Shown one piece after another: positions 12,241-61,445 of a stretch of DNA of 64,000 nt. The notes beneath the pieces were generated by a model. It searched no databases. It was not told the DNA's origin and saw only the letters and a list, made by a program, of their open reading frames with translations. Origin of the DNA: a virus. Lineage: Duplodnaviria > Caudoviricetes. Location of the stretch: IMG/VR virus record IMGVR_UViG_3300021400_000095, one strand, 5' to 3'. Position 1 is the first letter of the stretch; the number at the start of each line of letters is the position of its first letter. A program made the translations under genes and the position numbers.

Positions 12241-13047
12241 TTATCTCCAACCTTGTTTTAACTTATCTTTTTTAACTTTTATAATAGTTCTACCAATTCT
12301 ATGTAAAAAATTGTTTAACTGTTTTTCAATATATGGCATTGTTATTCCATATAAATTAAAATAATCAGTAAACACTTCTTTTAAACCATCATTAATTTTT
12401 AACTCATTAAAATTTTCTTTTGCTGTTAAATACAAATTCCATGTTTCTGAAGAAGTTAATAAATCATCATTATATGGTTCTTGTTTATCCATCATATATG
12501 CATATAATCCATTTGAAAAACCTTCTTGTTCAGACTTTATACACAAATATAATAATTTGGCCAATTTTTGTTTATTTTCACTTTTTGATTCCAAATCAGT
12601 TTTTATTTTTTCATATAACCCATTTGAATCACCAAATTCATGCCCCATCTTTTCTTGTTGAAAAATGTGTTCCACTTTATGTTGTATTGTTTCCATGGAT
12701 TTTGGTTTATCAACTGTTCCATTTATTGCATAGATGTTAATAAACATCATGGCAAGTCCTTTATTTATAAAAATAGAACCACCATCTGTTATATAGGACA
12801 AATTATATTTTTCCTTAAAATCTTTACTTAAAAAATTCCTATATATTACAGAACTAACAATTTTTATCTTATCAATATAAGAAACAATGGAAATCTTTTT
12901 TTTTATTAACAAGTTATTTTTTTCTATAATTTCAGCATTGTTTAATTTACTAATAATTTCATTATAAAACTCATTAGAAAACCTTGCAACATCATCATTT
13001 ATACTCAATTCTTCTTCTATGATTTTTTTTATTTCTTCAGTTAACAT
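12241..13047 (-). CDS. Leader-bearing zincin-family protein, catalytic Glu lost (HKVEH)
   Basis: MLTEEIKKIIEEEL leader; TIQHKVEHIFQ aligns with ILQHEIEHVFQ of 35392; downstream E..GF.N..Y. Confidence 0.6.
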   Translation of the reverse strand: MLTEEIKKIIEEELSINDDVARFSNEFYNEIISKLNNAEIIEKNNLLIKKKISIVSYIDKIKIVSSVIYRNFLSKDFKEKYNLSYITDGGSIFINKGLAMMFINIYAINGTVDKPKSMETIQHKVEHIFQQEKMGHEFGDSNGLYEKIKTDLESKSENKQKLAKLLYLCIKSEQEGFSNGLYAYMMDKQEPYNDDLLTSSETWNLYLTAKENFNELKINDGLKEVFTDYFNLYGITMPYIEKQLNNFLHRIGRTIIKVKKDKLKQGWR

Positions 13048-13079
13048 GCTCTATTTTTATAATACAGACTTATTTTTTT

Positions 13080-13955
13080 TTATAATCCATTTTGCCTTAA
13101 AATCTCTTTGAATTTCCAATCTCTTTCCTTTTCTCTTTCTTCTTCCATTTTTATTGTATATAATGAATATGCCATACCAACTTTTCTAATTAAATATTTG
13201 AAGCCATTCTTTGAAACTGTTTGGAAATACTTTTTAGTTTTATCAAAGTTTTCATAATTCTTAATTATATTATGATTAATTAAATACCAACATGCAGTAA
13301 TGAACAATGTATTTTGACTATTATATTTGCTAATATTGTCATATGAATTCTTTAATGTTGAATATAAATCTGATATGAGATTATCATAAATGAAATCTTT
13401 ATATGTTTTATATTCTTTTTTCTTTTTTATAGCAGAAGCATATGCCCCATTAACAAATGAATTTATCTCATTTTTATTGCAATAATATAATATCTTGCAT
13501 AAATAAGCAACTATTGGGTTATTATTACTCATCCCTTTTATAATATCCTGATATCTGTCAGTAGAAATTGGTTTGTTTTTCATTTTACATTCCCAATAAT
13601 GACTACATTCATGTTGGATTGTGTCTGTTAAATCATAATAATCTATTTCATTCCCAAATTGCAAAACTGTTAAATATAAAGTATTTTCTTCAAATGAATA
13701 TCCATTATTCCTATGTGTTTTTGAATACCATACATAGAATTCATCAGTGCTGTTAAAATATTTAAACATAAAATCAACATATAAATCAGACATTTCTGTT
13801 GCTACCCTAAACTTTTTTTCTTTTATGTTTTTCTCCAATAAAGTATATATGTCCTTTTCAATTATGTTTGTTAATTTAACAACCTCTTTTGCAATACCTA
13901 AATCTTCATTCATTAGATATCTAACCTGTTCCTCTGTTAATATTACTTTTTTCAT
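13080..13955 (-). CDS. Leader-bearing zincin metallopeptidase-like protein
   Basis: MKKVILTEEQVRYLMNE leader; HECSH plus downstream E..SFVN. Confidence 0.65.
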   Translation of the reverse strand: MKKVILTEEQVRYLMNEDLGIAKEVVKLTNIIEKDIYTLLEKNIKEKKFRVATEMSDLYVDFMFKYFNSTDEFYVWYSKTHRNNGYSFEENTLYLTVLQFGNEIDYYDLTDTIQHECSHYWECKMKNKPISTDRYQDIIKGMSNNNPIVAYLCKILYYCNKNEINSFVNGAYASAIKKKKEYKTYKDFIYDNLISDLYSTLKNSYDNISKYNSQNTLFITACWYLINHNIIKNYENFDKTKKYFQTVSKNGFKYLIRKVGMAYSLYTIKMEEEREKERDWKFKEILRQNGL

Positions 13956-14077
13956 ACATATATAATTAATATATCTTTTTAATAAATGTCAAGTTTGTTA
14001 ACTTAATAACAATAAAAAAAAAGCATAGAAATATTTTTCATATCCCTATGCTTTTTAAAATTTTATTTAATTTGTTG

Positions 14078-16834: not shown

Positions 16835-16877
16835 ATTTTTTATAGTTTTAACTTTAATTATTTTTATACATTTTTCT

Positions 16878-16887
16878 TATAAATAGT
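16878..16887 (-). promoter_or_regulatory. Putative late promoter of tail sheath
   Basis: ACTATTTATA on minus strand about 43 nt before ATG. Confidence 0.65.
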
Positions 16888-16930
16888 CTTTTGAAACCAA
16901 AAAATCTGTATTCATTTATTTTTTAATAAA

Positions 16931-18639: not shown

Positions 18640-18641
18640 AA

Positions 18642-19307
18642 TTAATAATAAGTTTCATAAACATTATCATTCAAGCCAAAATCAATAAGCACCAAATTAT
18701 CTTGACCATTTTCTTTAACAAGTCCCCAACTTGAAATTCTTTTCAAATCACCAACAGATTTAAGTTGATAATTTCCAAGATAGTCTTGCAACATATAAAA
18801 GATGGAATAATCATAATTATCTTGAAACTCTTCACTGTTGAATAATTCATCAAATTTTCTATTTCTATAACTTCTATTAGTATAAGAACTTACACAATAG
18901 TCAATCCAAGCACAAATTACTTCAAAACTATAACCAAAAATTCTTTTAAAGTCTGAAATTTTAGGTCTTCTTGCAAGTTCCATTTCAATCCACTGATAAT
19001 TTTCATCAACATCAAACACCTTAGCAAAACAGCCAATTTGTTGGAGATAATAATCTGCTTCTACTTCATTTTGAGCAAGTCCTTTCCTATTTTTAGCAAG
19101 TTTAAGAACCTTTTCTTCATCTATTTTATAAACAATTCTTGCAGAACCTGAAGATATTCTTTGTAATCTTTGTTCACAATATTGTATTCTTCCATTGAAT
19201 GTAGTGATTTTCTTAAACTCATCCATCTTGAAAAAAGTTGGATAAGCCATTTCACCAATTAAAACTTTATATTGATTTTCTGTAATTATAACTCTCTTGT
19301 TTTCCAT
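18642..19307 (-). CDS. Leader-bearing protein kinase-fold protein
   Basis: GSARIVY loop, VLK, helix-C Glu (QNEVE), DLKRISSWG catalytic loop, LIDFGL; leader KRVIITENQYKVLIGE. Confidence 0.65.
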   Translation of the reverse strand: MENKRVIITENQYKVLIGEMAYPTFFKMDEFKKITTFNGRIQYCEQRLQRISSGSARIVYKIDEEKVLKLAKNRKGLAQNEVEADYYLQQIGCFAKVFDVDENYQWIEMELARRPKISDFKRIFGYSFEVICAWIDYCVSSYTNRSYRNRKFDELFNSEEFQDNYDYSIFYMLQDYLGNYQLKSVGDLKRISSWGLVKENGQDNLVLIDFGLNDNVYETYY

Positions 19308-25884: not shown

Positions 25885-26733
25885 CTAATACATTGCACTA
25901 TACAATAGCATACAGGCATCTTGTTTATAGAGTACCATTGGGTCACTTTGCCTTCTTGGTGCATTATTTGGCCTATATTTATTATCAAAATAATCAAATT
26001 TTAGTTTTTGTGCATCATTATTAGAAAATAAATAATGCATGCCATCATGTGATTGATATTTCATTTCAGGTTTTATACCATTTTTTTCAAGATAATCTTC
26101 AAGTTCCTTTTGTGCTTTTTCATCATCAATATCACAATCAATTAATCCCCAAGGTCTAACCTTTGTCCATTTAACATTTACATCATCTGCTGTCATTTGT
26201 CTACCTGCTGCAAATTGAAATTCTCTATTCTTTTCCATCCCTCTTTGTTTTAATGAATTAGCATATGCATTGGTTTGATTCATGGACCTTTTATTAATTG
26301 TCATATAACATCTTGCATTAAATCTGTTACATAAGAATATAACAGCAGAAATATCTCTTGGTGAATCAATTGTTTTTACAATTCTGCCTTTATTTGAAAC
26401 AGCATTTTGGAAAGATGGGTTAACATTCATTTGGATATGTTTCAATGATTCAATTGCTTCTTCTTTGGTATTACCTGATACAATTCCATAAGCAACAAAA
26501 TTTACACTAAAATTTCTACTACCATCACCTGAATGGTTCTTATGAAAACTATTAAGATTGTCCTTCTTTCTCTGAGATATATAAACATACCAAAAATCAT
26601 CAGGTGAAGTCCACTGTCTATTAATAAGTTCAATGGCTGTATCCAACTGATATACTTCATTTACATGTCCTTCAAGTATTTTACTAATACTTTCAGAAAT
26701 TATATTTTTTAAATGTTCTTGACTTAACAACAT
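25885..26733 (-). CDS. Leader-bearing protein with AEP (primase-polymerase)-like motifs
   Basis: MLLSQEHLKNIISESISKIL leader; LIDCD and QSHDGMH resemble AEP DxD and SxxGxH. Confidence 0.45.
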   Translation of the reverse strand: MLLSQEHLKNIISESISKILEGHVNEVYQLDTAIELINRQWTSPDDFWYVYISQRKKDNLNSFHKNHSGDGSRNFSVNFVAYGIVSGNTKEEAIESLKHIQMNVNPSFQNAVSNKGRIVKTIDSPRDISAVIFLCNRFNARCYMTINKRSMNQTNAYANSLKQRGMEKNREFQFAAGRQMTADDVNVKWTKVRPWGLIDCDIDDEKAQKELEDYLEKNGIKPEMKYQSHDGMHYLFSNNDAQKLKFDYFDNKYRPNNAPRRQSDPMVLYKQDACMLLYSAMY

Positions 26734-26768: not shown

Positions 26769-26927
26769 ATGGGAAGAAAAAAACAAAAGTTTCAAATTGA
26801 TGAAAATGGTAAGTATTATAAAATTGTTAATGGTGAAAAAAAATACTATGAACCATTAAAACTTGTTGATTTTTTTTATGATGATGTAAAAATAGATTCT
26901 TTTTCAGAAAAAAATAAGAATGAATAA
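26769..26927 (+). CDS. Small hypothetical protein, convergent with 26876..27670
   Basis: 52 aa with phage-like codon use, preceded by TATTTATTA. Confidence 0.35.
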   Translation: MGRKKQKFQIDENGKYYKIVNGEKKYYEPLKLVDFFYDDVKIDSFSEKNKNE

Positions 26928-27670
26928 TTTATTAATATGAAATAAACTTTTCTTTTTTTTTCTTTCATATATAAATAATATATGTTCCCAATTTTAGCAT
27001 TGTATTTTTTATATTTCTTTTTATAATAATCTAATGTTAATCCACTTTCTGTTTTTAATATTTTTTTATTTTCCTCATTAGATTCAAAAAATTCTAATAA
27101 TTTTGCAATTTGTTTTAATTTGGTTATATTTTCATAATGTGTTAAATCTTTAATGTTTTTCTCTTTGGTTAAAAAGTAACCAAACTGTGAACATCTTGCA
27201 TTACATTCAGTATCTCTTAAATAATATAACAATTTCCTTAATAAAATATAAACCATATCAGTGGAAGATGAAATTAATATATTTTTTATTCCACCTTCAT
27301 TGTCATTAATAAAATGTGTTAATTCATGTATTATAAAAGAAATTGTTGTATTTTTATCATAATTATAAAAATAATTGTAGTTTACAATAATATGTTTGTC
27401 TTTATATTCCATATTACCATCAGTTAAATTATCACCAACAACAATAAATAAATCAGATGAATTATTATATGGATAATATTTTAAGATTGTTTTATTTGAT
27501 ATTTTGTAACTAAAATTGTAAACCTCTTTTTTTATTTTTATATCAATTAAATTGTAAATATATTCTGCTAATGGAAAAAGTTTTTCATTCAATATATGCA
27601 TTTTTTCTAATAGTATTTTACTAATACTTTCAGAAATTATATTTTTTAAATGTTCTTGACTTAATAACAT
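26876..27670 (-). CDS. Leader-bearing zincin metallopeptidase-like protein
   Basis: IIHELTHF, LLYYLRDTECNAR; same leader as 25885. Confidence 0.65.
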   Translation of the reverse strand: MLLSQEHLKNIISESISKILLEKMHILNEKLFPLAEYIYNLIDIKIKKEVYNFSYKISNKTILKYYPYNNSSDLFIVVGDNLTDGNMEYKDKHIIVNYNYFYNYDKNTTISFIIHELTHFINDNEGGIKNILISSSTDMVYILLRKLLYYLRDTECNARCSQFGYFLTKEKNIKDLTHYENITKLKQIAKLLEFFESNEENKKILKTESGLTLDYYKKKYKKYNAKIGNIYYLYMKEKKRKVYFILINYSFLFFSEKESIFTSS

Positions 27671-27675
27671 ATTCT
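27612..27675. repeat. 64 bp direct repeat copy 2
   Basis: See 26675-26738. Confidence 0.95.
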
Positions 27676-28744
27676 ATTCACCAATTAGTTCAGGAATATC
27701 ATTAATTGTACAATCTTGTGGGCAACCATCAGAATCATATACCATATATTGCCCATCTTCATATACAATCATTAAATAATATTCACCATATTTTACATTT
27801 ACAAATAAATTACCTGCTGCATCTTTTTGCCAATTTTCACCATCATCAAACCATACATTTGAAATAGGTGTATTTGAATTTGATGGAACATAATTCATTT
27901 TACCTTGTTTATTCCAAACAATAACATAGCCATTAATTGCTTTATCTGAAACATCTTTGAAGTCCCTATTTCCACCAAATTGGAAATGAGTATCAACCTC
28001 ATTGTTAATCCTATCAATTAATTCTTGATTAAGCCTTGTTTGCCAAGTTTTTCCATTGTCATTTGAAATTGCAACAGGAACAACTGATGAGAAATCTCTA
28101 ATAAAACAACATGCACCATCATGACCACCATTATAAACAATTCCTCTACATCTTGTTTTGTTCATACCTGATTCACCAAGTAATCTAATAATTTCATGTG
28201 CAGGAATTGATGATTTTCTCATGTTACCAAAACTTGCCCTATCATCATGCATTACAAGATTAACTGAAGATAAAATTTTTTTTGCAATATCATCTGGAAA
28301 AATATCAACAACCTGTTGTTTAATATGCCATCTATTACCATATGTTTGTTTTGCAAGTTGCTCAGAAAATATAAGGAAATCCTGATATCCACCAAGTAAC
28401 TTAAGTTTTATAATAGATGTACCATATCCAGTTGCTTTTTCATTACTTGATTTTAAATTATATACAGAATATACACCTGCACCATACATGTTTCCACCAT
28501 TTGAATTAGTAAATTCCCTACTAAAACCATATGTGAATAATGAATCTATAACAGACATCTTTTTACCACCAACAGTCACAATAGCATCTTTTGGCCTATG
28601 GTAAAGTGTAATACCATTCATTATATCTTTGTATGTAATACCATTTTCTCTGACATTAAATTTTTCATTAATATCAGAGAAATCCATATTACTAAATGTT
28701 TCTTTTACAATGTTTTTAACATCTGTTTCTGTTAATATCATCAT
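27674..28744 (-). CDS. Leader-bearing PARP/ADP-ribosyltransferase-like protein
   Basis: TLYH...GF....GNMYGAGVYS....S...A.GY resembles the H-Y ART/PARP fold; start reset to MMILTETDVKNIVKE. Confidence 0.55.
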   Translation of the reverse strand: MMILTETDVKNIVKETFSNMDFSDINEKFNVRENGITYKDIMNGITLYHRPKDAIVTVGGKKMSVIDSLFTYGFSREFTNSNGGNMYGAGVYSVYNLKSSNEKATGYGTSIIKLKLLGGYQDFLIFSEQLAKQTYGNRWHIKQQVVDIFPDDIAKKILSSVNLVMHDDRASFGNMRKSSIPAHEIIRLLGESGMNKTRCRGIVYNGGHDGACCFIRDFSSVVPVAISNDNGKTWQTRLNQELIDRINNEVDTHFQFGGNRDFKDVSDKAINGYVIVWNKQGKMNYVPSNSNTPISNVWFDDGENWQKDAAGNLFVNVKYGEYYLMIVYEDGQYMVYDSDGCPQDCTINDIPELIGE

Positions 28745-35391: not shown

Positions 35392-36279
35392 ATGAAAAAA
35401 ATAATATTAGATGAACAAACTAAGAATGAATTAAAGAACATAATTAATGAAGAACTAACTATTAACAATGAGATTAATCTTCTAACAACTTCAATTTATT
35501 CTGAAATAAAAAAGAACATTAAAAATGTAAAATATTCACCATTAAAACAAGATGTTTCTTTTGGTATATTACATTTAAAAAATATAAACATATTTGGATT
35601 AAAATTCAGTATTAAAATTACTATATACAACACAAATAAAAAAGAATCTTATAAGCAAATGTGTGAAGAATATGATTGTTATAATGGATATACTAATTTT
35701 ACAGATAATATTATTAACATAAATATTGGTGTCCTCAGTGGGTCAAGATATATTGATTTTGAAGGTATTCTGCAACATGAAATTGAACATGTTTTCCAAT
35801 ATACCAAAAAGAATAATCAAATAAACACAAAAATAGGCCAAAGCATTTATAAAAAGGCTTTCAACATAATCCAAAACTCTGACAATTATAACAAATATCA
35901 GTTTTATTGTGCATATCTAATTTATTGTTTGTCAGATAATGAGGTAGATGCTTTTGTTAATCAACTTTATAGGGATATTGTAAATGGAAATGCTTTAAAT
36001 GATGAACCTATTATACAAAACTCCACTATAATGCAAAATTATTTGAATTGCAAAAAAATATTAAATAATCTTGATATTAATAATAGATTTTATCAAATGG
36101 CACTTATGTCAATAGGTTTTGATACTGAGAAAAAACAAAAACAATTTATCAAATATTGTAACAATGCTCTTAAAAGAATGATAAACAAAATTGGTAAAAC
36201 TATTGTAAAAGCAAGAAAAGATTTAATTGAAAAAAAAGATGTTGCTGTGCAACTTAATAATTTGAAAATTGAAAATTAA
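35392..36279 (+). CDS. Leader-bearing zincin metallopeptidase-like protein
   Basis: MKKIILDEQTKNELKNIINEEL leader; HEIEH; EVDAFVNQLY. Confidence 0.7.
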   Translation: MKKIILDEQTKNELKNIINEELTINNEINLLTTSIYSEIKKNIKNVKYSPLKQDVSFGILHLKNINIFGLKFSIKITIYNTNKKESYKQMCEEYDCYNGYTNFTDNIININIGVLSGSRYIDFEGILQHEIEHVFQYTKKNNQINTKIGQSIYKKAFNIIQNSDNYNKYQFYCAYLIYCLSDNEVDAFVNQLYRDIVNGNALNDEPIIQNSTIMQNYLNCKKILNNLDINNRFYQMALMSIGFDTEKKQKQFIKYCNNALKRMINKIGKTIVKARKDLIEKKDVAVQLNNLKIEN

Positions 36280-39807: not shown

Positions 39808-40950
39808 TTATTTTTTATAATCATCTTTTATTTTATCTCTTAATTGTTGTTTTGCATCATCAGACCATTTTGAATAATATGGATTGTTAAATGCTAAATC
39901 CTGTGCATCTTTTGACCTCCACCTATAAAAATCATTATGTTTCCCTTTAAATGGTTTATTTTTATCTCTTTCCTGTTTCTTATCAAATAAATTTTTAAAT
40001 GTGTTTGGTTCATTCATTCTATCTTTATAATAATTAGCATTTTTAACTAATAAAAGAACAAATTTCCCATCACCAAGTTTAACATAATCAATATCATCAC
40101 CAGGAACAAAACCATATTGTTTATTTTGCCTTATATCTTTTCTTACTCTTTCCAAATCACTATAATCAACAACACCAATAACATTTTCATCTGATATGTT
40201 ATGTAAATCAGCATTTGTCATAGGATAATTCTTATGTAGCCAAGGTGTTTGCTTTTCAATACCACCATGCTTTTGTAAAATGTTTAAAAGTTTTTTACTG
40301 TTAATTGACTTTCCTTCCTTAACAATACTTTCATATGTTATAACTTGTTTAGTAGGATTTAAGTCATTCTTACTTCCACCTGATTTTTGATAAACATTTT
40401 GTTCCCCCCTATTAAATTGTGACCTCTTAATGTTAGCATCATTTGCCATTGCATTGTTGTATTGGGTCTCAATTTGTTTTAAATTTGGATTGTTTTTCTC
40501 CATTGTTTTCATTGTGGAAATACCTTGTTGCTTAATTGTTGGGTCATTGCTTTGTGCTTTCTTCTTTGCAGCACCATATCTCCACTTTAATGTTGATGCA
40601 TTTGTATTTGAAACCCTGTTTTTATTATCACCATATGTTCTATTAACTAAGTTCTGATTATCTTCAAATATCTTATTCTCCCAATCAAATTTCTTTGTCT
40701 CAACATATATTGGTGTTTGTACACTAATGTTTCTGTTTAATCCATAAAAACTACTATCCCTTCTCATCTGTTTTGCAAGTTTATCAGTTGTTAATGGCTT
40801 TGCATCACCATTTTCAGTCTTGTCACCAGTGTAAACATAATTTGCCCCATCAAATTCATTGAAATCTGACCCAACATTATCTAAATATGCTGTGTTACAC
40901 CCAACAATCTCATCCAACTGCTTCTGTGTTAAAATAACCCTTTTTGACAT
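39808..40950 (-). CDS. Leader-bearing hypothetical protein
   Basis: MSKRVILTQKQLDEIV; preceded by GATATTTATA. Confidence 0.6.
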   Translation of the reverse strand: MSKRVILTQKQLDEIVGCNTAYLDNVGSDFNEFDGANYVYTGDKTENGDAKPLTTDKLAKQMRRDSSFYGLNRNISVQTPIYVETKKFDWENKIFEDNQNLVNRTYGDNKNRVSNTNASTLKWRYGAAKKKAQSNDPTIKQQGISTMKTMEKNNPNLKQIETQYNNAMANDANIKRSQFNRGEQNVYQKSGGSKNDLNPTKQVITYESIVKEGKSINSKKLLNILQKHGGIEKQTPWLHKNYPMTNADLHNISDENVIGVVDYSDLERVRKDIRQNKQYGFVPGDDIDYVKLGDGKFVLLLVKNANYYKDRMNEPNTFKNLFDKKQERDKNKPFKGKHNDFYRWRSKDAQDLAFNNPYYSKWSDDAKQQLRDKIKDDYKK

Positions 40951-41055
40951 ATATCATAGTAATTTATATATAAATATCTTATTAATTTAATTTCTATCTA
41001 AAAAATATTGACAATAATATCCATAAACATATTTTTTAAGAAAAATAAGTTTTTT

Positions 41056-42291
41056 ATGGATAGAAAAATTAAAGTTTTAGTTGTTCCATCAGACAGATTT
41101 GGTTGTGGGTTATGGAGGTCAGTTAAGCCACATACTAAATTAAATGAATTATATGGAGATGAATTTGATATTGATATTGAATATGAACCAAATTGGTTGG
41201 ATTTACCATCATTTGATAAATATGACATTATTCACTTCCATAAAGGTTTATATCAAGATATGGAACCTTTTAGAAATGCCCTTAAATATTTTAAGGAACA
41301 TAATATTGTAACAATTATGGACCTTGATGACCATTGGGAAGTTGGCCAATTCCACCCAATGTTCCAAACTGCAAGAAAAATGAAAATGGCAGAAAAAATT
41401 ACAGGAAATTTTGGTCTTGTTGATTATGTAACAACAACAACTGAAATTTTTGCTAATAAAATTAAGAAGTGGAACAAAAATGTTTTTGTTTTCCCAAATG
41501 CAATTGACCCAAATGATTCACAATTTTCAACAGAAAAAGAACAATCTGATAAAATTAGATTTGGATTTGTAATGGGTTCTTCACATAAAAGAGATATGGA
41601 ACAATTTTTTGGAACTGTTTCAACACTTCCTGAAGATGTCCTTAATAAAATACAAATTGTTCTTTGTGGATATGACCTTAGAGGACAAACATATGTCCAA
41701 AATCCTGATGGTACTATAACAACAAGACCAATTAAACCAACAGAATCTGTTTGGTTTGAATATGAAAGAAATGTTACTAATGACTTTAAAATTGTGTCAG
41801 ATGAATACAGGAATTTCTTATTTAATTTCTTGCCAAATGCACAATATCCTAAAGTAAATGAAGAACCATATAGAAGAGAATGGACCAAGGATGTAAATAG
41901 TTTTGGAACACATTACAAATATATTGATGTGTTGATTGCACCATTGGACACAAATCAATTCAATGAAGTTAAATCAGAATTAAAATTTGTTGAAGCAGGT
42001 TTTACTAATACTGCATTGATTTGCTCAGATTTTGGTCCATATCACTTGGTTGGAAAAAGTATATTTGAAAGAGGTGGTGGAATTAATGAAAATGGAAATT
42101 GTGTTCTTATTGACCCTGCAAAGAAACATAAAGCATGGTCTAAAGCAATTACTAGATTAACAAGAAATCCTGAACTAATTGATAAACTTAAATATAACCT
42201 TCATGAATTTGTTAAAGATGAATATAATCTTGATAATGTAACAAAAAGAAGAGCAGAATGGTATAAATCAATAATTAAAAAAGAGGACTAA
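41056..42291 (+). CDS. Glycosyltransferase (GT-B/GT4-like)
   Basis: GCG.WR..PH, DLDD.W, PNAID, DVLIAPL..FN.VKSELKFVEAG; start reset to MDRKIK. Confidence 0.8.
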   Translation: MDRKIKVLVVPSDRFGCGLWRSVKPHTKLNELYGDEFDIDIEYEPNWLDLPSFDKYDIIHFHKGLYQDMEPFRNALKYFKEHNIVTIMDLDDHWEVGQFHPMFQTARKMKMAEKITGNFGLVDYVTTTTEIFANKIKKWNKNVFVFPNAIDPNDSQFSTEKEQSDKIRFGFVMGSSHKRDMEQFFGTVSTLPEDVLNKIQIVLCGYDLRGQTYVQNPDGTITTRPIKPTESVWFEYERNVTNDFKIVSDEYRNFLFNFLPNAQYPKVNEEPYRREWTKDVNSFGTHYKYIDVLIAPLDTNQFNEVKSELKFVEAGFTNTALICSDFGPYHLVGKSIFERGGGINENGNCVLIDPAKKHKAWSKAITRLTRNPELIDKLKYNLHEFVKDEYNLDNVTKRRAEWYKSIIKKED

Positions 42292-47124: not shown

Positions 47125-47448
47125 TTAGCCTTCATAACTTAAACCTGGTGCTCCATCTCCATATGTATCAAGCCAAATCTTGTTTATTACCTTTTGTCCT
47201 TCTTTCCATTCATACTCATAATCGTCAATGATTCTTGTTGCTTCTGCATTTAATGCATTACATAATCTTGTTAGAACAATATCCCTGAATGCTTCTTCTT
47301 CTGTAGGCTCACCCCATCTGTCATAAACACTTCCCCCATCTTCAAAATCTGCATTAAAATCATAATCCTCTTTCAGTACTTTCTTCACACTCTCAGCAAC
47401 AATCTGCCTGAGAGTGTTTTCATTTAGTTTTATTATATTCTTTTTCAT
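47125..47448 (-). CDS. Leader-bearing small protein
   Basis: MKKNIIKLNENTLRQIVAESVKKVLKE; start reset to ATG 47448. Confidence 0.65.
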   Translation of the reverse strand: MKKNIIKLNENTLRQIVAESVKKVLKEDYDFNADFEDGGSVYDRWGEPTEEEAFRDIVLTRLCNALNAEATRIIDDYEYEWKEGQKVINKIWLDTYGDGAPGLSYEG

Positions 47449-47665
47449 ATTTATATTCTTTATTTCATTAGCATTATTGTTCTTTTGATATTTTTTGGCT
47501 ACCTTGTGATTGATAGTAATTATCTGCTTTTTCAACAGTGGTATTACCTGCTGAATTTCATATCTCATCACCAACTATTGATACAACTATAAATAGTATG
47601 AAAAATAAAAACTCACATGGTAGTGAGTTTTTTAGTGTAAATAAGTATATTATTCCCTTTTATTT

Positions 47666-48151
47666 TTAGTAGTTCATTTGTCCTTGTTGTGGGTTCATTG
47701 CATTCTGTGGGCTATATTGTCTATTATTGATATAACCTGTTTGTTGTCTTTGGTTAATTCTTTTACCAGCAGCATCCCATTTACTTTGCATGCCTTGTAC
47801 ATCACCCATTTTTGCTTTTATTGCTGCAATTTGTTGGTTAATTTGTTGATTTACTTGATTAACAGCAGCATTTACTCTTTGTTCTCTTGATGCTTCAATG
47901 GCATTAATTTGTTGTTGTAATTTCTCATTATCTGCTTGCATGCCTTGCATTTGTGCTTGGTATGCATTCATTTTTGCATTATCAACAACATTACCTACTG
48001 CATTACCAACACCCTTTGCAACACCTTTGATTCCTCTACCAAGATTTTGGAAAAACCCTTCATCCATATCAGATTCTTTAAGAACCTCAATAACAGATTC
48101 TCTAACAATATTTTTAAGTTCTGATTCAGTCAATCTAATTTTATTAGCCAT
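47666..48151 (-). CDS. Leader-bearing Gln-rich coiled-coil protein
   Basis: MANKIRLTESELKNIVRESVIEVLKE..MDEG. Confidence 0.7.
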   Translation of the reverse strand: MANKIRLTESELKNIVRESVIEVLKESDMDEGFFQNLGRGIKGVAKGVGNAVGNVVDNAKMNAYQAQMQGMQADNEKLQQQINAIEASREQRVNAAVNQVNQQINQQIAAIKAKMGDVQGMQSKWDAAGKRINQRQQTGYINNRQYSPQNAMNPQQGQMNY

Positions 48152-50397: not shown

Positions 50398-51510
50398 ATG
50401 GCAAAATTAACAGAACAAGAAATGCTTCAAGTTGTTGAAGAAAGTATAAAGAAAATTGAAAATAAGGATTTTACTGCATATTTTTTAGTAATTGACACAA
50501 AAGGAAACCCATCAGGTTCTCTTGAATACATTTATCAAACAGCATTCACTTTAAGAGAACTTGGTTATAATGCAGTAATAATTCACAATGATAAAGAATT
50601 TGTTGGTGTTGAGGAATGGCTTGGAAAGAAATATGCTGATTTACCACATAAGAATTTTGAAACAGAAAATGTTGAGATTGGGCCTTCTGACTTTTTATTC
50701 ATTCCTGAAATTTTTGCAAACATTGTTGGTCAATTAAAGAATATTAGTTGTAAAAAAATAATGATAGTTCAAAACTATAATTATTTACCTGAATTCATGC
50801 CAATTTCAAGTACTTTGGATGATATGAAGATTAATGATGTTGTAACAACAACTAATGTTCAGGCAACAAAGGTAAAGGAATATTTTCCAACAGTTCAAAC
50901 ACATGTTGTTGCACCAAGTATTAAAAAGGTTTTTAGAAATAGTGATAAACCAAGAAAGTTAATTATAAATGTTGTTTCCAAGAATCAAGAAGATGTTTAT
51001 AGAATTATGAAACCATTCTATTGGAAATATCCTATTTACAAGTGGATTTCATTCAGGGAACTAAGAGGTCTTGACCAAGAAACTTTAAGTACTGCACTAA
51101 GGGAAACACCTATAACTGTTTGCATTGATGCAGAAACTAATTTTGGATATGTTGAACTTGAAGCACTAAGATGTGGCTCAATAGTATTAGCAAAAATACC
51201 AAGCACACCTAGTGATTGGAATCTTGAAACTGACAAGAATGGTGAGCAACATTTAACTGATGCATGTGTTTGGTTTGATAACATTGACAGTGTTCCTGAT
51301 ATGCTTGCAAGTATTATTAGAACATGGACACTTGATAGAATTCCTTCAGAAGTATATAATAATCTACATAAATTTGATTTAATGTTCACACCTGAGCAGC
51401 AATCAAAAGAAATTGAAAGAGTTTATGGGCATGACATCTTTGAAAAAAGATTAAATGATTTGAAAGAATTCCACATTCAATTAAAGAATAATATAAATGA
51501 GAATAAATAA
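50398..51510 (+). CDS. Glycosyltransferase (GT-B-like)
   Basis: G..IY..A..L...GY, IPE, NFG...LEALRCG. Confidence 0.65.
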   Translation: MAKLTEQEMLQVVEESIKKIENKDFTAYFLVIDTKGNPSGSLEYIYQTAFTLRELGYNAVIIHNDKEFVGVEEWLGKKYADLPHKNFETENVEIGPSDFLFIPEIFANIVGQLKNISCKKIMIVQNYNYLPEFMPISSTLDDMKINDVVTTTNVQATKVKEYFPTVQTHVVAPSIKKVFRNSDKPRKLIINVVSKNQEDVYRIMKPFYWKYPIYKWISFRELRGLDQETLSTALRETPITVCIDAETNFGYVELEALRCGSIVLAKIPSTPSDWNLETDKNGEQHLTDACVWFDNIDSVPDMLASIIRTWTLDRIPSEVYNNLHKFDLMFTPEQQSKEIERVYGHDIFEKRLNDLKEFHIQLKNNINENK

Positions 51511-51513: not shown

Positions 51514-52305
51514 ATGAAAGATTTAACAGTAATTGTTCCAATACATGAATATACTGAAGAAGTAGAAAAGTTACTTACAAATGCAGTTGAGAGTTACAAG
51601 AAAATTGCAGATGATGAAAATATTTTAATGTTTGTTGGCCCTGCCAAAGTTTTGGATAAAGTCAAAAAAATGTCAGTTTTAGATGGAAACAACAATGTTG
51701 TGTTTCTTGAAAACAAGGATATTGATTTTTGTACACAAATAAATGTTGCAGTAGATGCATGTGTAACAAAATATTTCTCAATTCTTGAATTTGATGATTT
51801 GTATATGCCAAACTGGTTTAAGAATGCAGAAGCATATATGGAATTAGATAATAACATTTCAGTTGTATTACCATTAACTGAAATTGTTATGGCTGATAAA
51901 ATGGAAGATGGACCTGTTGGTTATGTAAATGAGGCTGTTTGGGCAACATCTTTTTCTGATGAAATTGGTTATCTTGATATTGAAGCACTTTTAACTTATA
52001 TGAATTTTAATACTACAGGTGGAATTTTTAACAAGGAAGATTTTATTAAAATTGGAAAACTTAAGAAATCAATTAAATTAACCTATTGGTATGAATATTT
52101 ATTAAGAAGTGTATATAATGGTAAAAAGGTATATGTTGTACCAAAAGTTGGATATCAACATTTCTTGAATAGAAAGGGTTCAATTTCAGACACATATAAT
52201 AATACTTTAACACCTGATGAAGCTGATTTCTGGATTGAATTAGCACAAAAAGACTACTTATTCAACAAAGAAAGAGATAAGTCACACTATCAATTTGAGC
52301 AATAA
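51514..52305 (+). CDS. Glycosyltransferase family 2-like
   Basis: LTVIVPIH, N.AV..C.TKYF.ILEFDD. Confidence 0.7.
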   Translation: MKDLTVIVPIHEYTEEVEKLLTNAVESYKKIADDENILMFVGPAKVLDKVKKMSVLDGNNNVVFLENKDIDFCTQINVAVDACVTKYFSILEFDDLYMPNWFKNAEAYMELDNNISVVLPLTEIVMADKMEDGPVGYVNEAVWATSFSDEIGYLDIEALLTYMNFNTTGGIFNKEDFIKIGKLKKSIKLTYWYEYLLRSVYNGKKVYVVPKVGYQHFLNRKGSISDTYNNTLTPDEADFWIELAQKDYLFNKERDKSHYQFEQ

Positions 52306-55708: not shown

Positions 55709-55732
55709 ATAATATTTAAAACCCAATGAACA

Positions 55733-56128: not shown

Positions 56129-56129
56129 T

Positions 56130-56318
56130 ATGGAATTTAAAAATATAAAAGAATTAAGTAATGGTGAACTTGACATTTATAAATTAGAGTTATATCATCA
56201 ATATGAAGCATTGAAAACAAAAATTGATAGAATGTGTGATGAACTTGACAAAATTTCATCAGAATATGATAAGGCAAAAAAAGAAATAAGAATAAGACAA
56301 AGTAAAATATATAAATAA
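56130..56318 (+). CDS. Small coiled-coil hypothetical protein
   Basis: Tightly coupled to both neighbours. Confidence 0.5.
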   Translation: MEFKNIKELSNGELDIYKLELYHQYEALKTKIDRMCDELDKISSEYDKAKKEIRIRQSKIYK

Positions 56319-57211: not shown

Positions 57212-57215
57212 AAAG

Positions 57216-57241
57216 AAAAGACCTCATGTGAGGTCTTTTTT
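57216..57241. terminator. Bidirectional terminator
   Basis: AAAAGACCTCA..TGAGGTCTTTT. Confidence 0.75.
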
Positions 57242-57242
57242 G

Positions 57243-58766
57243 TTATTCATATCTTTCTGTTACATCACTTACAACTGTGAATCTTAATACCTTTTTAAAA
57301 TATTTAATCTCCCTACCTAAGTTTACTTTTATGTCTACAAAATACTCATGTGGTACTAAATCTGCTGTGTAAATCAAGAAGAAATTGTTTAAGAAATTCT
57401 TATCAATAGGATGATAATCAATGACAGTTAACTCTCTGTTTCCATCTTTAATATATAATCTGTATTCAGCACTATCTATTAATTCTTTGACATCTGTTTC
57501 ATATTCTTTCCTGAAATCTACTGTAATTTCTCTTACTTCACCTCTATGTAGAACTTCAGCATCATTGATTCCATATAAACTTGGTACAAAACTACTCTTA
57601 TTAGATGACCTGTTTCCAACCACTAAGAAATTTGATTGTGGTTTAACTTCAAACTCTAATTCAATATCATCTATTTTTTGGCCATTTAAAGACAAATTAG
57701 ACCATTTGTCATAACCAATGGTTCCATCCTCCAACTTAATCTTTTGAGGCTCAATATGGGCAAAATAGACACCTTTTTGGGCTTGTTGGACTTCAAATTC
57801 AACACCATCAATTGTACAAGTTGGAATATTGTCAAGATTTACTGGTTCACCATTTATATTTGAATAAAGATACAAATCATTTTCCCTACCAAGGCAAAAA
57901 TTTTCTCTATCATCAGAAACTGTTTTACAATACTTTGCTTCAATATATGGATGGAAGAAAGTATTTGTATTATTAGTAAAGAAACCAACATATTGTGGCA
58001 TTATAGTTTCCATTCTTTCAATATTAGGGGAAAACATAATACCAATACCATAATTTTCTTCACCATTTACCAAATCAATTATATATTTTGTTATATCAAT
58101 ACAAAGATTTTCATTCCCAAAATCAAAATGTTGTTCTCCAATAACAATAGATTGTTCATTGTTTTTGAATAAATCATACTGTTCTTTTAAAAATTCATTT
58201 GAATAAACACCACCTTCAAGAATAATTTTTCTTCTTATTGTGTTTCCTTCTTCATCTTCTTCCAAAACCCAAATATTTTTTGGTGAAATATTTAAATTAG
58301 GGTCATTTAAATCTATCTTTTCTTTATCCACTGGCCAGACATAACCATCACTACTAAAATACCAGTTTGATGGGTTATCATTAAAAGACCTATTATTATT
58401 AATCCAAAAATCAGCAACAAAATCAAAACCTCTACCTTCATCAAAATGTGCAGGTAGTTTAAATGCAATTATATCAAAAGATGCTGCTCTTTGTCTAATT
58501 TCTTTACCATTTAATAAAAGTTTTTCAAGAGGATATCCATCAACTGAAAAACAATTTGTCATTTTTAATTTTACTGATAAATTATCTAAATCAGCAAATG
58601 TTTTATCTTTAATAAGGTCAAGTATTTCATTTTCATCAAAATGAATTAATCCCCTTGTAATTACTTTTCTGCCATAATTTAATTCCATTACAGGATTAAG
58701 ACCCATATTAGAATATTGGCCTTTTACAATTGTATTTACTTTATCTAAAAAAAAGTGTCTTACCAT
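57243..58766 (-). CDS. Hypothetical virion structural protein
   Basis: 507 aa beta-rich; late motif upstream. Confidence 0.5.
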   Translation of the reverse strand: MVRHFFLDKVNTIVKGQYSNMGLNPVMELNYGRKVITRGLIHFDENEILDLIKDKTFADLDNLSVKLKMTNCFSVDGYPLEKLLLNGKEIRQRAASFDIIAFKLPAHFDEGRGFDFVADFWINNNRSFNDNPSNWYFSSDGYVWPVDKEKIDLNDPNLNISPKNIWVLEEDEEGNTIRRKIILEGGVYSNEFLKEQYDLFKNNEQSIVIGEQHFDFGNENLCIDITKYIIDLVNGEENYGIGIMFSPNIERMETIMPQYVGFFTNNTNTFFHPYIEAKYCKTVSDDRENFCLGRENDLYLYSNINGEPVNLDNIPTCTIDGVEFEVQQAQKGVYFAHIEPQKIKLEDGTIGYDKWSNLSLNGQKIDDIELEFEVKPQSNFLVVGNRSSNKSSFVPSLYGINDAEVLHRGEVREITVDFRKEYETDVKELIDSAEYRLYIKDGNRELTVIDYHPIDKNFLNNFFLIYTADLVPHEYFVDIKVNLGREIKYFKKVLRFTVVSDVTERYE

Positions 58767-58994
58767 TATCTTTATACATTTATATATAAATAGTTGTAAT
58801 TTAAGAACAAAATTTTTTTTTATAATAATTATTTTTATTAAGTTTTGGTTATTAATATGTTATGTATTTAGCAAATAAAATACTTTATTTTGATTGATTT
58901 TTTTCTTTCATTATAAACTATTTATTAGTAGTTGAAGGAATTTATTTTCTGGCCAGAAAAATTATATTGAAAATAATGAACTAAAACTATGTGA

Positions 58995-59723
58995 ATGGGG
59001 AAAAAGAAAAAAGAAGTTTCAGGATTGACTGAAACTGTGTTAGAAATTGGAGTTAAACCCTTGTCTTACAGGGTTAACTTAAAGTGCAAAAACCAAAAAC
59101 AGAAAGAATTGGTTAACAACATTAAGGCCAATCAAATTACAGTTGTTGAAGGTGTTTTTGGTGTTGGCAAAACATTTGTCATTAATTCTGTTGCACTTGA
59201 AATGTTAAAAAATCAAGAAGTAGAAAAAATAATTTTAATTGTTCCATCTGTTAGTAATGGTAGTATGAGTTTGGGTCATTTACCAGGCAGTCTTGATGAA
59301 AAAATCTATAATTTTGCAGTAAATGAATTAGAAAGTTTTAGAAAAATATTGCAAAAATATGGAAATGAAAATGCAGACCAAATCATAGAAGAACTGTTCA
59401 AAAAAGAAATGATACAAATTAGACCACTTGCATTTTTGAGAGGTGCATCTTTTGAAAATGCTTTTATCTGTGTGTCTGAAGCAGAACAATTTACTAAAGA
59501 AGACCTTTTTCTAATACTTACAAGATTTGAAAGTGGGAAAATGGTTATCTCAGGTGACCAATTACAAACAGATAGAAAAGAGGTTAAATCAGGAAATAGT
59601 GGATTACAACATGCAATGGAAAGATTAAATGGAATAAATGGTGTTGGAATTGTTAAGTTTTCTGAAAATGATATTGTAAGAAATGATATATTATTAGATA
59701 TATATAACAAATGGAAAAACTAA
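58995..59723 (+). CDS. phoH: PhoH-like ATPase
   Basis: GVFGVGKT, LGHLPG, PLAFLRGASF, EAEQ, LTR, SGD..Q.D, DIVR. Confidence 0.9.
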   Translation: MGKKKKEVSGLTETVLEIGVKPLSYRVNLKCKNQKQKELVNNIKANQITVVEGVFGVGKTFVINSVALEMLKNQEVEKIILIVPSVSNGSMSLGHLPGSLDEKIYNFAVNELESFRKILQKYGNENADQIIEELFKKEMIQIRPLAFLRGASFENAFICVSEAEQFTKEDLFLILTRFESGKMVISGDQLQTDRKEVKSGNSGLQHAMERLNGINGVGIVKFSENDIVRNDILLDIYNKWKN

Positions 59724-59777
59724 ATTGTTTGGCTTAAATTGCAAAATTGCAGTCACAAAGTTATGTATTAGTTTTTC

Positions 59778-59804
59778 AACCACCTAAAATTAGGTGGTTT
59801 TTTT
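59778..59804 (+). terminator. Terminator after phoH
   Basis: AACCACCTAA..TTAGGTGGTT followed by a T tract. Confidence 0.7.
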
Positions 59805-59863
59805 AATTTTGACCCCTTGATTTTTATAAAAAATACTTTATTTTTTATAAAAAAACAAATGAT

Positions 59864-60298
59864 ATGGACAAAAAAATTACAAGTGTTATTAAATTTGACA
59901 ATAATTTAAAAATAGGAACAACTGATAAAAAAAATCCAAAAGTTATTTATTTTGAATGGGGCTATTATATTAGGCCAAAAATAAAAAAAGAACAATATTT
60001 CCAAGATATTGAATCTGTGAAAAAAGAACTTGCTGATTTTTTAAAAGATTATATGAAAAATGCAACAGCATTAAAAAAAGATTATCTTTTTTTTAGTGAA
60101 ATTGCTGAAGATAGAATTTTTTATAATAAAAAATCATTCTTTACTTTTCAATTACTAATGAAACCAAATGATTTTATTGTTGACCATTATGGTTTTAAAG
60201 AAATTGCAGAAGCATTTTCTGAAAGTCAAACATTAGTTAGTGACTTTAAGAAAATAATTAGAAAATATGACTTTGCAGTTTGTAAATCTAAGTCATAA
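59864..60298 (+). CDS. Hypothetical protein
   Basis: 144 aa ORF. Confidence 0.55.
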   Translation: MDKKITSVIKFDNNLKIGTTDKKNPKVIYFEWGYYIRPKIKKEQYFQDIESVKKELADFLKDYMKNATALKKDYLFFSEIAEDRIFYNKKSFFTFQLLMKPNDFIVDHYGFKEIAEAFSESQTLVSDFKKIIRKYDFAVCKSKS

Positions 60299-60324
60299 AC
60301 TATTTATTATTAAAATAGATACAA

Positions 60325-60714
60325 ATGGCACAAGAATTTTATTTAATAAAAGGAGCAACATCCCCATATCTTAGGATGGAATTAATAAATGATGGTAGAT
60401 ATGATTATAAAAAATCATTATTTGATAATGCCTTACAAGATAGTGTTGTAACATTTTCAATGAAAAATGTTGAAACAGGTCTTTTAAAAGTAGCAAAAGC
60501 ACCTGTTGATATTGTTTTAGCAAAAAGTGAAGGCTGTGAAGAAAAATATGTTCTGCAATATAAATGGAAAGAAAGAGATACCAAAGAATCAGGTGTATTT
60601 GAAGGTATGTTTGAAATAAAATTTAATGGAAACCTTTCTGAAGATGGTATTGAATACCCTAATGGTATATTAAAAGTTCCTGTGGAAGAACCACTTATAA
60701 TTTATATTAGATGA
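60325..60714 (+). CDS. BppU-N-like virion protein
   Basis: FYLIKG.T.P.L, V.F.M, Y.W...DT..SG.F.G.F.I. Confidence 0.5.
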   Translation: MAQEFYLIKGATSPYLRMELINDGRYDYKKSLFDNALQDSVVTFSMKNVETGLLKVAKAPVDIVLAKSEGCEEKYVLQYKWKERDTKESGVFEGMFEIKFNGNLSEDGIEYPNGILKVPVEEPLIIYIR

Positions 60715-60745
60715 AAAAAGAGAGTTAATCAACTCTCTTTTTTTT
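60714..60745. terminator. Bidirectional terminator
   Basis: AAAAAAGAGAGTT-AATC-AACTCTCTTTTTT. Confidence 0.8.
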
Positions 60746-61445
60746 ATGCCAAATCAGGATATAATCTTATTATCTTGTTTCTAATACTTTTAACCTTGTT
60801 CTCATAATTTTTATCACTTGCATACCTCATTCCAAGGTCATTAACAAATCCACCAGGGCTTAAAAGTTCATCAATTGATTTATCATTTAAATATTTTGCT
60901 TTCATTAAATTAATGTATGGTTGTATGCTATCATCCTGTGTTGGATATGTGCATGCATTTTTTCCACTATCATATGAACCAACAGACCAAACACTATTTG
61001 TTTTTCTTGCTCTATTTGTCATACCAAAACAACTTTCCAAATGTGCTTGTGCTAATAGTAATGGCAAATCAAAATTATTTTTTTGGCAAACATCAACAAT
61101 TTTTTCTGGTGAAAGTTGAAGATTTTCTATTGACATATTCTGATTCTTTAATGCCTGTGCAATGTACTTTGTAACATCTTTAATCTTTTTATCTCTTAAA
61201 GTATCTACTTGCTGTTCCACACCAACCTCATGTTTAATGTAATTTTTATATTTTTCATTAAGCTCCAAGCCATCAATTGCAAATGCAATAACACTTGCAG
61301 CAATACCAGCAGCAAGTGCTGCTTTATATCTTTTTATTAGAGATTTTATATCAAATCCTTCAGTCAGTGTTTCACCTGTTATTTCTTGTAAGATTGAATA
61401 TTCCTTTATGAAATCAAACTGACTTTCATTAACAATGAATTTCAT
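60744..61445 (-). CDS. GH73-like glucosaminidase/muramidase with leader
   Basis: LLAQAHLES.FG, N..SVG, YASD..Y; N-terminal MKFIVNESQF..IKE..LQE..LTE. Confidence 0.75.
   Translation of the reverse strand: MKFIVNESQFDFIKEYSILQEITGETLTEGFDIKSLIKRYKAALAAGIAASVIAFAIDGLELNEKYKNYIKHEVGVEQQVDTLRDKKIKDVTKYIAQALKNQNMSIENLQLSPEKIVDVCQKNNFDLPLLLAQAHLESCFGMTNRARKTNSVWSVGSYDSGKNACTYPTQDDSIQPYINLMKAKYLNDKSIDELLSPGGFVNDLGMRYASDKNYENKVKSIRNKIIRLYPDLA

Follow-up and report, generated by a model that had tools for sequence, protein, structure and literature searches.

In bacteriophage T4, the internal proteins IPI, IPII and IPIII and the Alt protein carry a capsid-targeting sequence (CTS), which the prohead protease gp21 cleaves off (Mullaney and Black 1996; PMC3012670, PMC9026906, PMC5694885). 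[quoted passage not shown] In phages phiKZ, 201phi2-1 and SPN3US, long propeptides of head and ejection proteins are cut by the gp175/gp245 prohead proteases (PMC5694885, PMC10052503, PMC7411985). Beyond the work on T4, phiKZ and SPN3US, literature searches gave no account of the leader described below.

Polyvalent proteins of phages and conjugative elements, reportedly described by Iyer, Burroughs, Anand, de Souza and Aravind in 2017, contain ART, zincin-like, AEP/primpol-like and LPD-type domains and are thought to be delivered with the DNA.

The window, which is the whole 64,000-nucleotide stretch of DNA analysed here, belongs to the 353-kb genome of an uncultured rumen T4-type jumbo phage, whose host is probably a rumen Bacteroidota, and megablast against GenBank phages returned no match. 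A sequence-only reading of the window had noticed a related N-terminal leader on dispersed ORFs with different payloads and had proposed a packaging tag like the T4 CTS. The shared leader was borne out by a leave-one-out PSSM: nine distinct leaders (10 genes) outscored all other N-termini of the window, and 8 of the 10 distinct leaders scored 11.8–28.2 against a maximum of 4.9 in 57 non-leader N-termini, while the leader of gene 12241 was marginal and that of gene 60744 was recovered via its orthologs only. The leader consensus is [IV]-x-[LI]-[TNS]-E-x-x-[LV]-[KR]-x-[IL]-[IV]-x-E, extended in a long form of 22–27 residues by [SC]-V-K-K-V-L-K-E, and every leader of the window ends in [ILVM]-x-E. 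Scanning three related jumbo phages with the PSSM trained on the window recovered the motif, with 7–10 N-terminal matches per genome at ≥12 bits against 0–0.2 in shuffled versions of these genomes; N-terminal positions account for less than 4% of all positions scanned, and the motif is more than 100-fold enriched there. Database searches with the leader only gave E values down to 1e-14 (against 5.8 billion proteins).

Among the leaders, 45% of the codon pairs encoding identical residues use different codons, which shows that selection acts on the leader peptide and not on DNA. Since the peptide is conserved while synonymous change is free, the conservation does not serve to keep homology at the DNA level for recombination, and a DNA-level constraint (recombination or translation signal) was ruled out as the main cause. 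The recent duplication shared by genes 25885 and 26876 is an exception. E and K abound in the leaders, which are charged amphipathic helices devoid of a hydrophobic run; a Sec/Tat signal peptide was rejected, as the leaders do not show a hydrophobic core after a basic N-region.

The coordinates by which the leader genes had been named, kept here as designations, are the low ends of the minus-strand genes, whose N-termini lie at the high ends instead. Genes 12241, 13080 and 35392 are paralogs of one another. Gene 12241 (12241..13047, minus strand; E 1e-9 and 5e-6 with 13080 and 35392) is a member of this HExxH family without the HExxH motif, and carries the truncated leader MLTEEIKKIIEEE (about 13006–13047; 5.0 against 1.8 by leave-one-out PSSM) and the post-leader EELSI/EELGIS block common to the family. 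Gene 13080 (13080..13955, minus strand) encodes an HExxH, possibly zincin-like, protein with the short-form leader MKKVILTEEQVRYLMNE (13905–13955; 16.9 bits, leave-one-out 15.1); no Pfam or PHROG family was found for it, and the Atlas provided weak leads only. The third paralog, 35392 (35392..36279, plus strand), is located between the two halves of a split DNA polymerase and encodes an HExxH (HEIEH) protein whose leader, MKKIILDEQTKNELKNIINEE (35392–35454; 25.6, leave-one-out 20.9), has a 3-residue insertion. Two neighbouring genes, 25885 (25885..26733, minus strand), encoding a possible AEP-like protein, and 26876 (26876..27670, minus strand), encoding an HExxH (HELTH) protein, have the same long-form leader MLLSQEHLKNIISESISKILE (26671–26733, 24.7 bits, and 27605–27670, respectively); their first 58 coding nucleotides are alike save one mismatch and their payloads are unrelated to each other. 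Of the four payloads that had been called zincins, 13080, 26876 and 35392 have the HExxH motif and 12241 does not; none has a family match, and they are kept as leads. A weak LPD23 lead was also seen in the Atlas.

Gene 18642 (18642..19307, minus strand) encodes a protein-kinase-like protein with the leader MENKRVIITENQYKVLIGE (19251–19307), followed by an invariant MAYP. Gene 27674 (27674..28744, minus strand) encodes ART/PARP-like and beta-propeller-like domains behind the leader M(M)ILTETDVKNIVKE (28700–28744); its true start was corrected to about 28741–28744, and its closest homolog begins at the second Met. The conserved 380-aa protein 39808 (39808..40950, minus strand) has the leader MSKRVILTQKQLDE (40909–40950), followed by IVG; in the orthologs of three related phages, ILTQKQLDEIVGG is nearly invariant and the next 50 or so residues are variable. 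Gene 47125 (47125..47574, minus strand) encodes a small protein with a perfect long-form module, MKKNIIKLNENTLRQIVAESVKKVLKE (47368–47448, 30.5 bits), and an acidic payload of 80 aa. The leader begins at Met 47448 within a longer open frame, whose 42 open codons upstream match the tail of an N-domain in the database protein P0006. Gene 47666 (47666..48151, minus strand) encodes a Gln/Asn-rich 161-aa protein with the long-form leader MANKIRLTESELKNIVRESVIEVLKE (48074–48151, 27.5 bits), and its ortholog in genome G001 has two tandem leaders. The GH73 glucosaminidase 60744 (60744..61445, minus strand), which has a hydrophobic segment, lies two genes downstream of the portal gene, a position syntenic in all four genomes. 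Its degenerate leader MKFIVNESQFDFIKE (61401–61445) fails the leave-one-out test (−6.4), and its orthologs in three related phages keep clear leaders (IITEEQF, VLTEQQY and IILTEAQFKRLLSEE). A twelfth candidate leader gene, 50398, was dropped because the motif is not kept in its orthologs; to judge from the sequence only, its look-alike N-terminus resembles helix 1 of a glycosyltransferase-like fold.

A late-type motif, ACTATTTAT, precedes several of the leader genes, and several structural genes too, by 20–27 nt; it was found upstream of 18642 and 25885 and before 47574. In its strict form it precedes 13 of 37 leader-gene starts against 8–18% of all genes; others are in operons. We take it as a putative mark of late genes from its presence before structural genes only. 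Genes 12241 and 13080 adjoin the sheath and tube region, and 18642 lies beside sheath-adjacent genes.

The payloads differ in fold, being kinase-like, ART/PARP-like and GH73. Most of them had no match in Pfam and PHROGs, and single-sequence PDB searches gave none. For 18642, the AF2 model (pLDDT 91.7) shows the leader as a short low-confidence helix (residues 10–16), and Foldseek matches to APH(2''), PRPK/Bud32 and ULK1 at E 1e-4 confirmed the kinase payload proposed earlier as a protein-kinase-like fold. In all 722 kinase-like homologs, [LIVM]-x-E directly precedes the invariant MAYP, even after a swap of leader type. In the AF2 model of 27674 (pLDDT 87.5), the leader helix (residues 6–18) is detached, residues 20–28 form a disordered linker and the globular part starts at about residue 35. 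The PARP-like ART payload assigned to it is supported by VIA Z scores of 5–6.7 to ParT, MbcT, cholix toxin and PARPs and by Pfam PARP matches in 10 of 48 homologs; the assignment rests on these two lines because Foldseek gave no match at E≤0.001 for the model. Homologs of this ART domain also occur within multidomain proteins of 600–1500 aa. Likewise, the GH73 payload of 60744 agrees with its match to Pfam PF01832 at 5.8e-9, while the AEP-like payload of 25885 is a lead only, drawn from the nearness of the Atlas cluster PF24387 (0.92), its nearest named cluster.

A T4 gp20-type portal gene (62391..64000, minus strand; Pfam PF07230 at 2e-66) is cut by the window end, and the head module runs on from it past this end. 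Contig L112 is the phage's own genome and continues exactly from the window. Its minus strand encodes, in order, a 230-aa protein with a partial internal module, an S77 protease (L112:18542–19264), a protein of 152 aa whose long leader is perfect (29 bits), an HExxH-family protein of 271 aa behind a short leader, an acidic scaffold-like protein (L112:15632–17131) and the gp23 capsid protein; two extra leader genes lie between the gene for the protease and those for scaffold and capsid. The protease belongs to PF03420 (Peptidase_S77), is encoded next to gp23 in a T4-type head module, and aligns with T4 gp21 over its full length, including ELNHP, SSRGLG and LLIE. An S77 protease is encoded in 5 of 5 related jumbo contigs searched, and leader genes lie within the head module in the three relatives with complete contigs. 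The T4 gp23 propeptide has 65 residues (PMC5694885), and the site L63-x-E65|A66 of gp23 aligns with M-L-K-E|A of this phage's capsid protein, which, as judged from the alignment, keeps the L-x-E|A maturation site of T4. The N-terminus of the scaffold-like protein, TLKALLSEAVKDAIR, matches the second half of the leader, TLRQIVAESVKKVLK, just as in T4 the CTS QEFIAE|A matches gp22 EQLIAE|A. The earlier choice of 61451 as scaffold was not upheld, as the acidic protein in the gp22 position adjoins the capsid gene, outside the window.

The locus resembles the T4 system in having a short common N-terminal peptide on otherwise unrelated, fast-evolving proteins, an [LI]-x-E end with a Φ-Φ-A-E|[AS] core (here IVAE|S, in T4 FIAE|A), a leader similar to the scaffold N-terminus in both phages, an S77 protease gene beside the scaffold and capsid genes and, like Alt, one ADP-ribosyltransferase-like cargo (27674). 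It differs in that the leader has 14–27 residues with up to three Φ-x-E sites, against 6–19 residues in T4, in that there are about ten tagged genes in 64 kb and 10–20 per related genome, against four in T4, and in that larger enzymes are among the tagged proteins (kinase-like, HExxH and GH73 proteins, the last with a membrane segment). Many small payloads here are acidic, unlike the basic internal proteins of T4; moreover, the module is found within proteins as well, in tandem copies and where shuffled domains meet. With the phiKZ/SPN3US type it shares a jumbo phage genome, many internal head proteins (predicted here), conserved N-termini in paralogs and several redundant cut sites after Glu (also predicted), and the transmembrane segment after the propeptide of SPN3US gp47 has a counterpart in the GH73 protein 60744. 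That type is defined by an S80 protease, an [S/A/G]-x-E motif and propeptides often longer than 100 residues; here we found a T4-type S77 protease, [ILVM]-x-E sites and short leaders, and the leaders were not assigned to it. The domain repertoire is similar to that of polyvalent proteins, the AEP-like and zincin labels being leads, but separate genes, each with its own leader, replace one giant protein.

The helical tag has at its end the motif at which the phage's own head protease, of T4 type, would cut, and we therefore consider it most likely that about ten otherwise unrelated, putatively late proteins are loaded into the capsid and clipped like T4 internal proteins. The leader system would then probably be an enlarged form, with a longer leader, of the CTS and internal proteins of T4, with capsid docking, S77 clipping and ejection with the DNA. 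Docking, cleavage, packaging and injection, as we infer them, would proceed as follows. The leader, an amphipathic helix of 14–27 residues joined to the payload by a flexible linker, would dock late-made proteins onto the prohead scaffolding core, probably by mimicry of the N-terminal helix of the scaffold protein. The gp21-type (S77) protease would cut after at least one leader [ILVM]-x-E site (L-T/N-E, I-V-x-E or V-L-K-E) and so release mature enzymes and small hypervariable proteins within the head, to be ejected together with the DNA; a protein with the module between two of its domains would be packaged as a polyprotein and then cut apart. The term 'host-takeover cocktail' for the payloads may be apt, to judge from their folds. 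If the tag works as in T4, sequence would mark the proteins carried in the head of an uncultured jumbo phage and injected. Candidate first-minute effectors would include kinase-like, ADP-ribosyltransferase-like, peptidoglycan hydrolase and HExxH proteins, together with small hypervariable proteins, dozens in number, on which host defences have likely acted. The CTS idea of T4 would extend to a large uncultured clade of Bacteroidota phages, with mimicry of the scaffold N-terminus as a concrete docking mechanism, and metagenomes could be searched with the tag for injected anti-defence proteins.

The long-form module is not restricted to N-termini. It also lies inside proteins where shuffled domains meet, at the C-terminus and in tandem copies, and its use as an internal junction is new here. 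It is present in at least 300 database proteins, and each of two database searches gave roughly 50–60 payload clusters; in one search, 22 N-domain clusters and 52 C-domain clusters were joined combinatorially by one module. At one syntenic site different C-domains follow the module, and beads-on-a-string proteins with two modules were found. The payloads are also found as genes of their own that have the module at the very N-terminus (100 of 120). Of the tag as first proposed, the likeness to the T4 CTS stands as the best fit, given the S77 gene, the [ILVM]-x-E ends, the L-x-E|A capsid site and the MAYP junction, and the restriction to an N-terminal leader falls, because the motif is also an internal domain junction.

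The domain junctions suggest another explanation, in which the module is mainly a site for swapping effector domains, as in polymorphic toxins or polyvalent proteins, with processing by the leader-tagged HExxH peptidases instead of S77 and no requirement for capsid delivery. The combinatorial joining of the N- and C-domain clusters, the varied C-domains at one syntenic site, the two-module proteins, the leaders on several HExxH paralogs, the ART domains within large multidomain proteins and one module copy on a bacterial-looking contig would all fit. However, the same payloads also stand free behind an N-terminal module, the module is conserved as a peptide with free synonymous change, the cut-site pattern is that of S77 proteases and the HExxH proteins have no family match, and we regard this explanation as improbable. 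Hardly more probable is that the helix mediates docking or oligomerisation at some assembly outside the prohead, for instance a complex of the tail or baseplate, a cytoplasmic body or a chaperone, and that the head protease leaves it uncut. Several leader genes do lie among tail genes (12241, 13080, 18642), and a generic interaction helix could be internal or C-terminal; yet the genes for protease and scaffold have two leader genes between them, the leader is similar to the N-terminus of the scaffold protein and to the site of capsid maturation, and the conserved [LIVM]-x-E is followed at once by MAYP, the conserved and presumed mature start.

K, I, N, E and L are the commonest residues, three of the genes are paralogs and 50398 is a look-alike, so that the resemblance could be a by-product of AT-rich composition with a generic amphipathic N-terminal helix, or of paralog descent. 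The 7–10 N-terminal matches per genome against almost none in shuffles, leave-one-out scores far above all other N-termini and the leader-only searches refute this for practical purposes, the payload folds being unrelated as well, and we give it almost no weight. An AT-rich proteome contains many [ILV]-x-E sequences, so that the site by itself is weak evidence. Internal, C-terminal and tandem modules, which a strict N-terminal signal does not require, count against the capsid-tag reading, as do the copy in P0039 and the acidity of many payloads.

Beyond capsid loading of leader-tagged proteins, a bolder and more doubtful proposal is that the long-form module is a self-contained 'address plus cut-site' cassette that is active wherever in a protein it stands. 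With it, jumbo phages of the gut and rumen would assemble, fuse and reshuffle polyproteins of small hypervariable effectors, package them by scaffold-helix mimicry, cut them in the head and inject them, a combinatorial injected-effector system which would be far larger than the internal proteins of T4. One module carrier, P0039, lies on a bacterial-looking contig, beside an IS1595 transposase.

All eleven N-termini on which the sequence-only reading had based a shared leader are present in the window, their coordinates being the low ends of minus-strand genes; the shared leader is genuine and not a product of chance. The leader core reads [IV]-x-[LI]-[TNS]-E-x-x-[LV]-[KR]-x-[IL]-[IV]-x-E and is followed, in the long form of 25885, 26876, 47125 and 47666, by [SC]-[VI]-x-K-[VI]-L-x-E. 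Leave-one-out scoring gave 11.8–28.2 for eight distinct leaders versus at most 4.9 for 57 other window N-termini. The leader of 12241 was marginal and that of 60744 failed by itself; the latter gene was kept because its orthologs carry a leader (IITEEQF, VLTEQQY, IILTEAQFKRLLSEE). The proposed scan of relatives was also positive: in three related jumbo-phage genomes fetched whole (G001, G002 and G003), the window-trained matrix gave 7–10 N-terminal matches per genome (threshold ≥12 bits) versus 0–0.2 in shuffles, N-terminal positions representing less than 4% of all positions scanned. Among 35 leaders, 45% of identical residues use different codons, AGT/TCA serine switches included, and selection therefore acts on the peptide. 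This does not hold for 25885 and 26876, which show one mismatch in their first 58 coding bases ahead of unrelated payloads; here the leader was recently copied onto new cargo. Gene 50398 begins with a leader-like helix that is not conserved as a leader in its orthologs. This gene (50398–51510), 51514–52305 and 41008–42291 look glycosyltransferase-like by eye, and none of the three has a Pfam match.

Several of the enzymatic payloads proposed earlier were recovered. The product of 18642 is predicted to adopt a protein-kinase-like fold (AF2 pLDDT 91.7; Foldseek E 1e-4 to APH(2''), PRPK/Bud32 and ULK1), 60744 encodes a GH73 enzyme with a hydrophobic segment downstream of the leader, and in 27674 a beta-propeller-like part comes after an ART/PARP-like domain (Pfam PARP in 10 of 48 homologs; VIA Z 5–6.7 to ParT, MbcT, cholix toxin and PARPs). 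HExxH was found in three of the four presumed zincins (13080, 26876 and 35392) and not in 12241, and none of them gave a family match; 12241, 13080 and 35392 are paralogs. The AEP-like domain of 25885 remains tentative, an Atlas lead being its sole support, and no payload assignment was found for 39808 or for the small proteins 47125 and 47666. In the structural models, the leader of 27674 is predicted to form a helix of its own, after which comes a low-confidence linker, and residues 1–20 of 18642 to form a short low-confidence helix ahead of the globular part. The ART-fold matches of the 27674–28744 model include one from the cyanophage A4 pre-ejectosome (chain 9k3a_B; Z 5.5, 128 aligned residues), so that this solved phage ejection-protein complex may contain a similar domain.

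The window is AT-rich (28.7% GC), encodes T4-type virion proteins (tail sheath, gp20-type portal, tape-measure-like and baseplate-hub-like proteins) and, from exact-protein matches, is part of a 352,732-bp metagenome scaffold (ENA ERZ28612966 scaffold_15). Its close relatives are 300–390-kb IMG/VR contigs (portal identity 56–75%), and the gene order of G001, G002 and G003 is syntenic with it. Locus L112, a base-for-base match to the window tail, extends the window by 15.7 kb and holds, on the minus strand, a head module with, in this order, a protein of 230 aa bearing a partial internal copy of the long leader (hereafter the module), a Peptidase_S77 of 240 aa, a 152-aa protein (N-terminus MLITEKQLKNIVLESVKKFLKE, 29 bits), a 271-aa HExxH-family protein (N-terminus MQKKLTITENQFKQLLNEE), an acidic 499-aa scaffold-like protein in the gp22 position (L112:15632–17131) and a gp23-type capsid protein. 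The scaffold-like protein lies outside the window, and 61451–62368, previously taken for the scaffold, encodes a conserved protein of 305 aa immediately downstream of the portal. The S77 protease, encoded outside the window 14.5 kb past the portal, can be aligned with T4 gp21 over the whole length, with ELNHP, SSRGLG and LLIE conserved; LIE-9 is a likely gp21 autocleavage site (PMC9026906). From T4 gp23, 65 residues are removed (PMC5694885), and M-L-K-E/A of the capsid protein aligns with L63-x-E65/A66 of gp23; the long leader ends in V-L-K-E, resembling this site. S77 is encoded in 5/5 relatives searched, and leader genes are present in the head modules of all three genomes fetched whole. Endonuclease-like genes, DUF723-containing in the window phage (L112:9061–9858, 5799–5996 and 11763–13460) and zinc-ribbon-rich, possibly HNH-type, in G002 (259596–260951 and 261653–262624), have inserted into the head module, and the resulting breaks in the protease-scaffold-capsid cluster differ from genome to genome. 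In the more distant G003 (191538–193358) and G005, S77 lies inside a 606–622-aa open frame, and upstream of it there is another, weak S77 match; the protease gene may be fused or interrupted.

In T4, IPs are directed to the core by propeptides of 10–19 residues, which gp21 then removes, and cleavage of Alt occurs at ITE-6 and LTE-619 (PMC9026906, PMC5694885); the internal proteins are diverse except for the conserved capsid targeting sequence, CTS (PMC3012670). The scaffold-like N-termini of 4/4 genomes, ...ESK-x-[ST]-L-K-x-[LM]-L-[SG]-E-A-V-K-x-[AV]-[IL]-R, correspond, position by position, to T-L-R-Q-I-V-A-E-S-V-K-K-V-L-K, the leader's second half. A parallel exists in T4, where IPII and IPIII start with MKTYQEFIAE/A and gp22 with MLKEQLIAE/A (L114:1118–1237, L118:4327–4416 and L118:3630–3719), CTS and gp22 sharing Q-x-Φ-I-A-E-A. 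From these resemblances, the leader is proposed to enter the core through mimicry of the N-terminal helix of the scaffold itself. In the kinase-like family (722 members), the mature part begins with an invariant MAYP always directly preceded by [LIVM]-x-E, and in two members the long leader replaces the short one, as expected of a portable, cleavable tag.

An upstream motif, (A)ACTATTTAT(A), is conserved 16–27 nt ahead of the start codons of leader and structural genes, which in the window are those starting at 10321, 19307, 26733, 30359, 33642, 43512, 47574, 53346, 58766, 60325 and 62368. Ahead of structural genes the distance is 20–27 nt, as for 61451, 57243, genes near the portal and, in G001, the sheath, tube-like and portal genes. 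Its strict form was found before 13 of 37 leader-gene starts in four sequences versus 8–18% of all genes; other leader genes are located inside operons. Judged by sequence, it is probably a late promoter element of the clade.

The long module, described so far as N-terminal, also occurs internally. In relatives it is internal to the gene immediately upstream of that for the protease, occurs in tandem in the G001 protein orthologous to 47666, and separates an AEP-like domain from a second domain in a 695-aa G003 protein. A 40-residue query, the N-terminus of 47125, retrieved at least 157 similar-length and at least 143 longer proteins (5.8 billion proteins searched, E≤0.01). The module is N-terminal in 100/120 of the former, followed by a 60–110-residue payload (59 clusters), and internal in 114/120 of the latter, after a conserved ...ESK-x-NKN-(M)KKN, with 22 N-domain clusters combined with 52 C-domain clusters. 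Some matches lack the Met and others carry two modules, in a beads-on-a-string fashion. The same payload is found free-standing and fused. Ahead of its leader Met, 47125 has 42 further open codons (47449–47574), which correspond to the end of a 116-aa N-domain in the module-bearing protein P0006, and a late-type motif stands just before a TTG at 47574; 47125 may be a truncated two-domain form with an uncertain start.

Under the protease model, proteins whose domains are joined by the module would be polyproteins, packaged whole and cut afterwards. Alternatively, the module may be a domain-swapping junction served by another protease; in a syntenic gene of two closely related phage contigs the N-domain is kept and the C-domains after the module differ. 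T4-like capsid loading is the best supported reading and, on sequence and context only, a moderately probable one. Compared with the T4 CTS, whose reviews anticipated the principle, the leader system is longer, multi-site, much expanded and position-flexible. A module-bearing two-domain protein, P0039 (L115:6508–7431), was also found on a 474-kb contig of bacterial appearance (TonB receptor, fucosidase, GH2), at 6.5 kb from its end and adjoining a PARG fragment and an IS1595 transposase; gene transfer, a prophage remnant or chimeric assembly could account for it.
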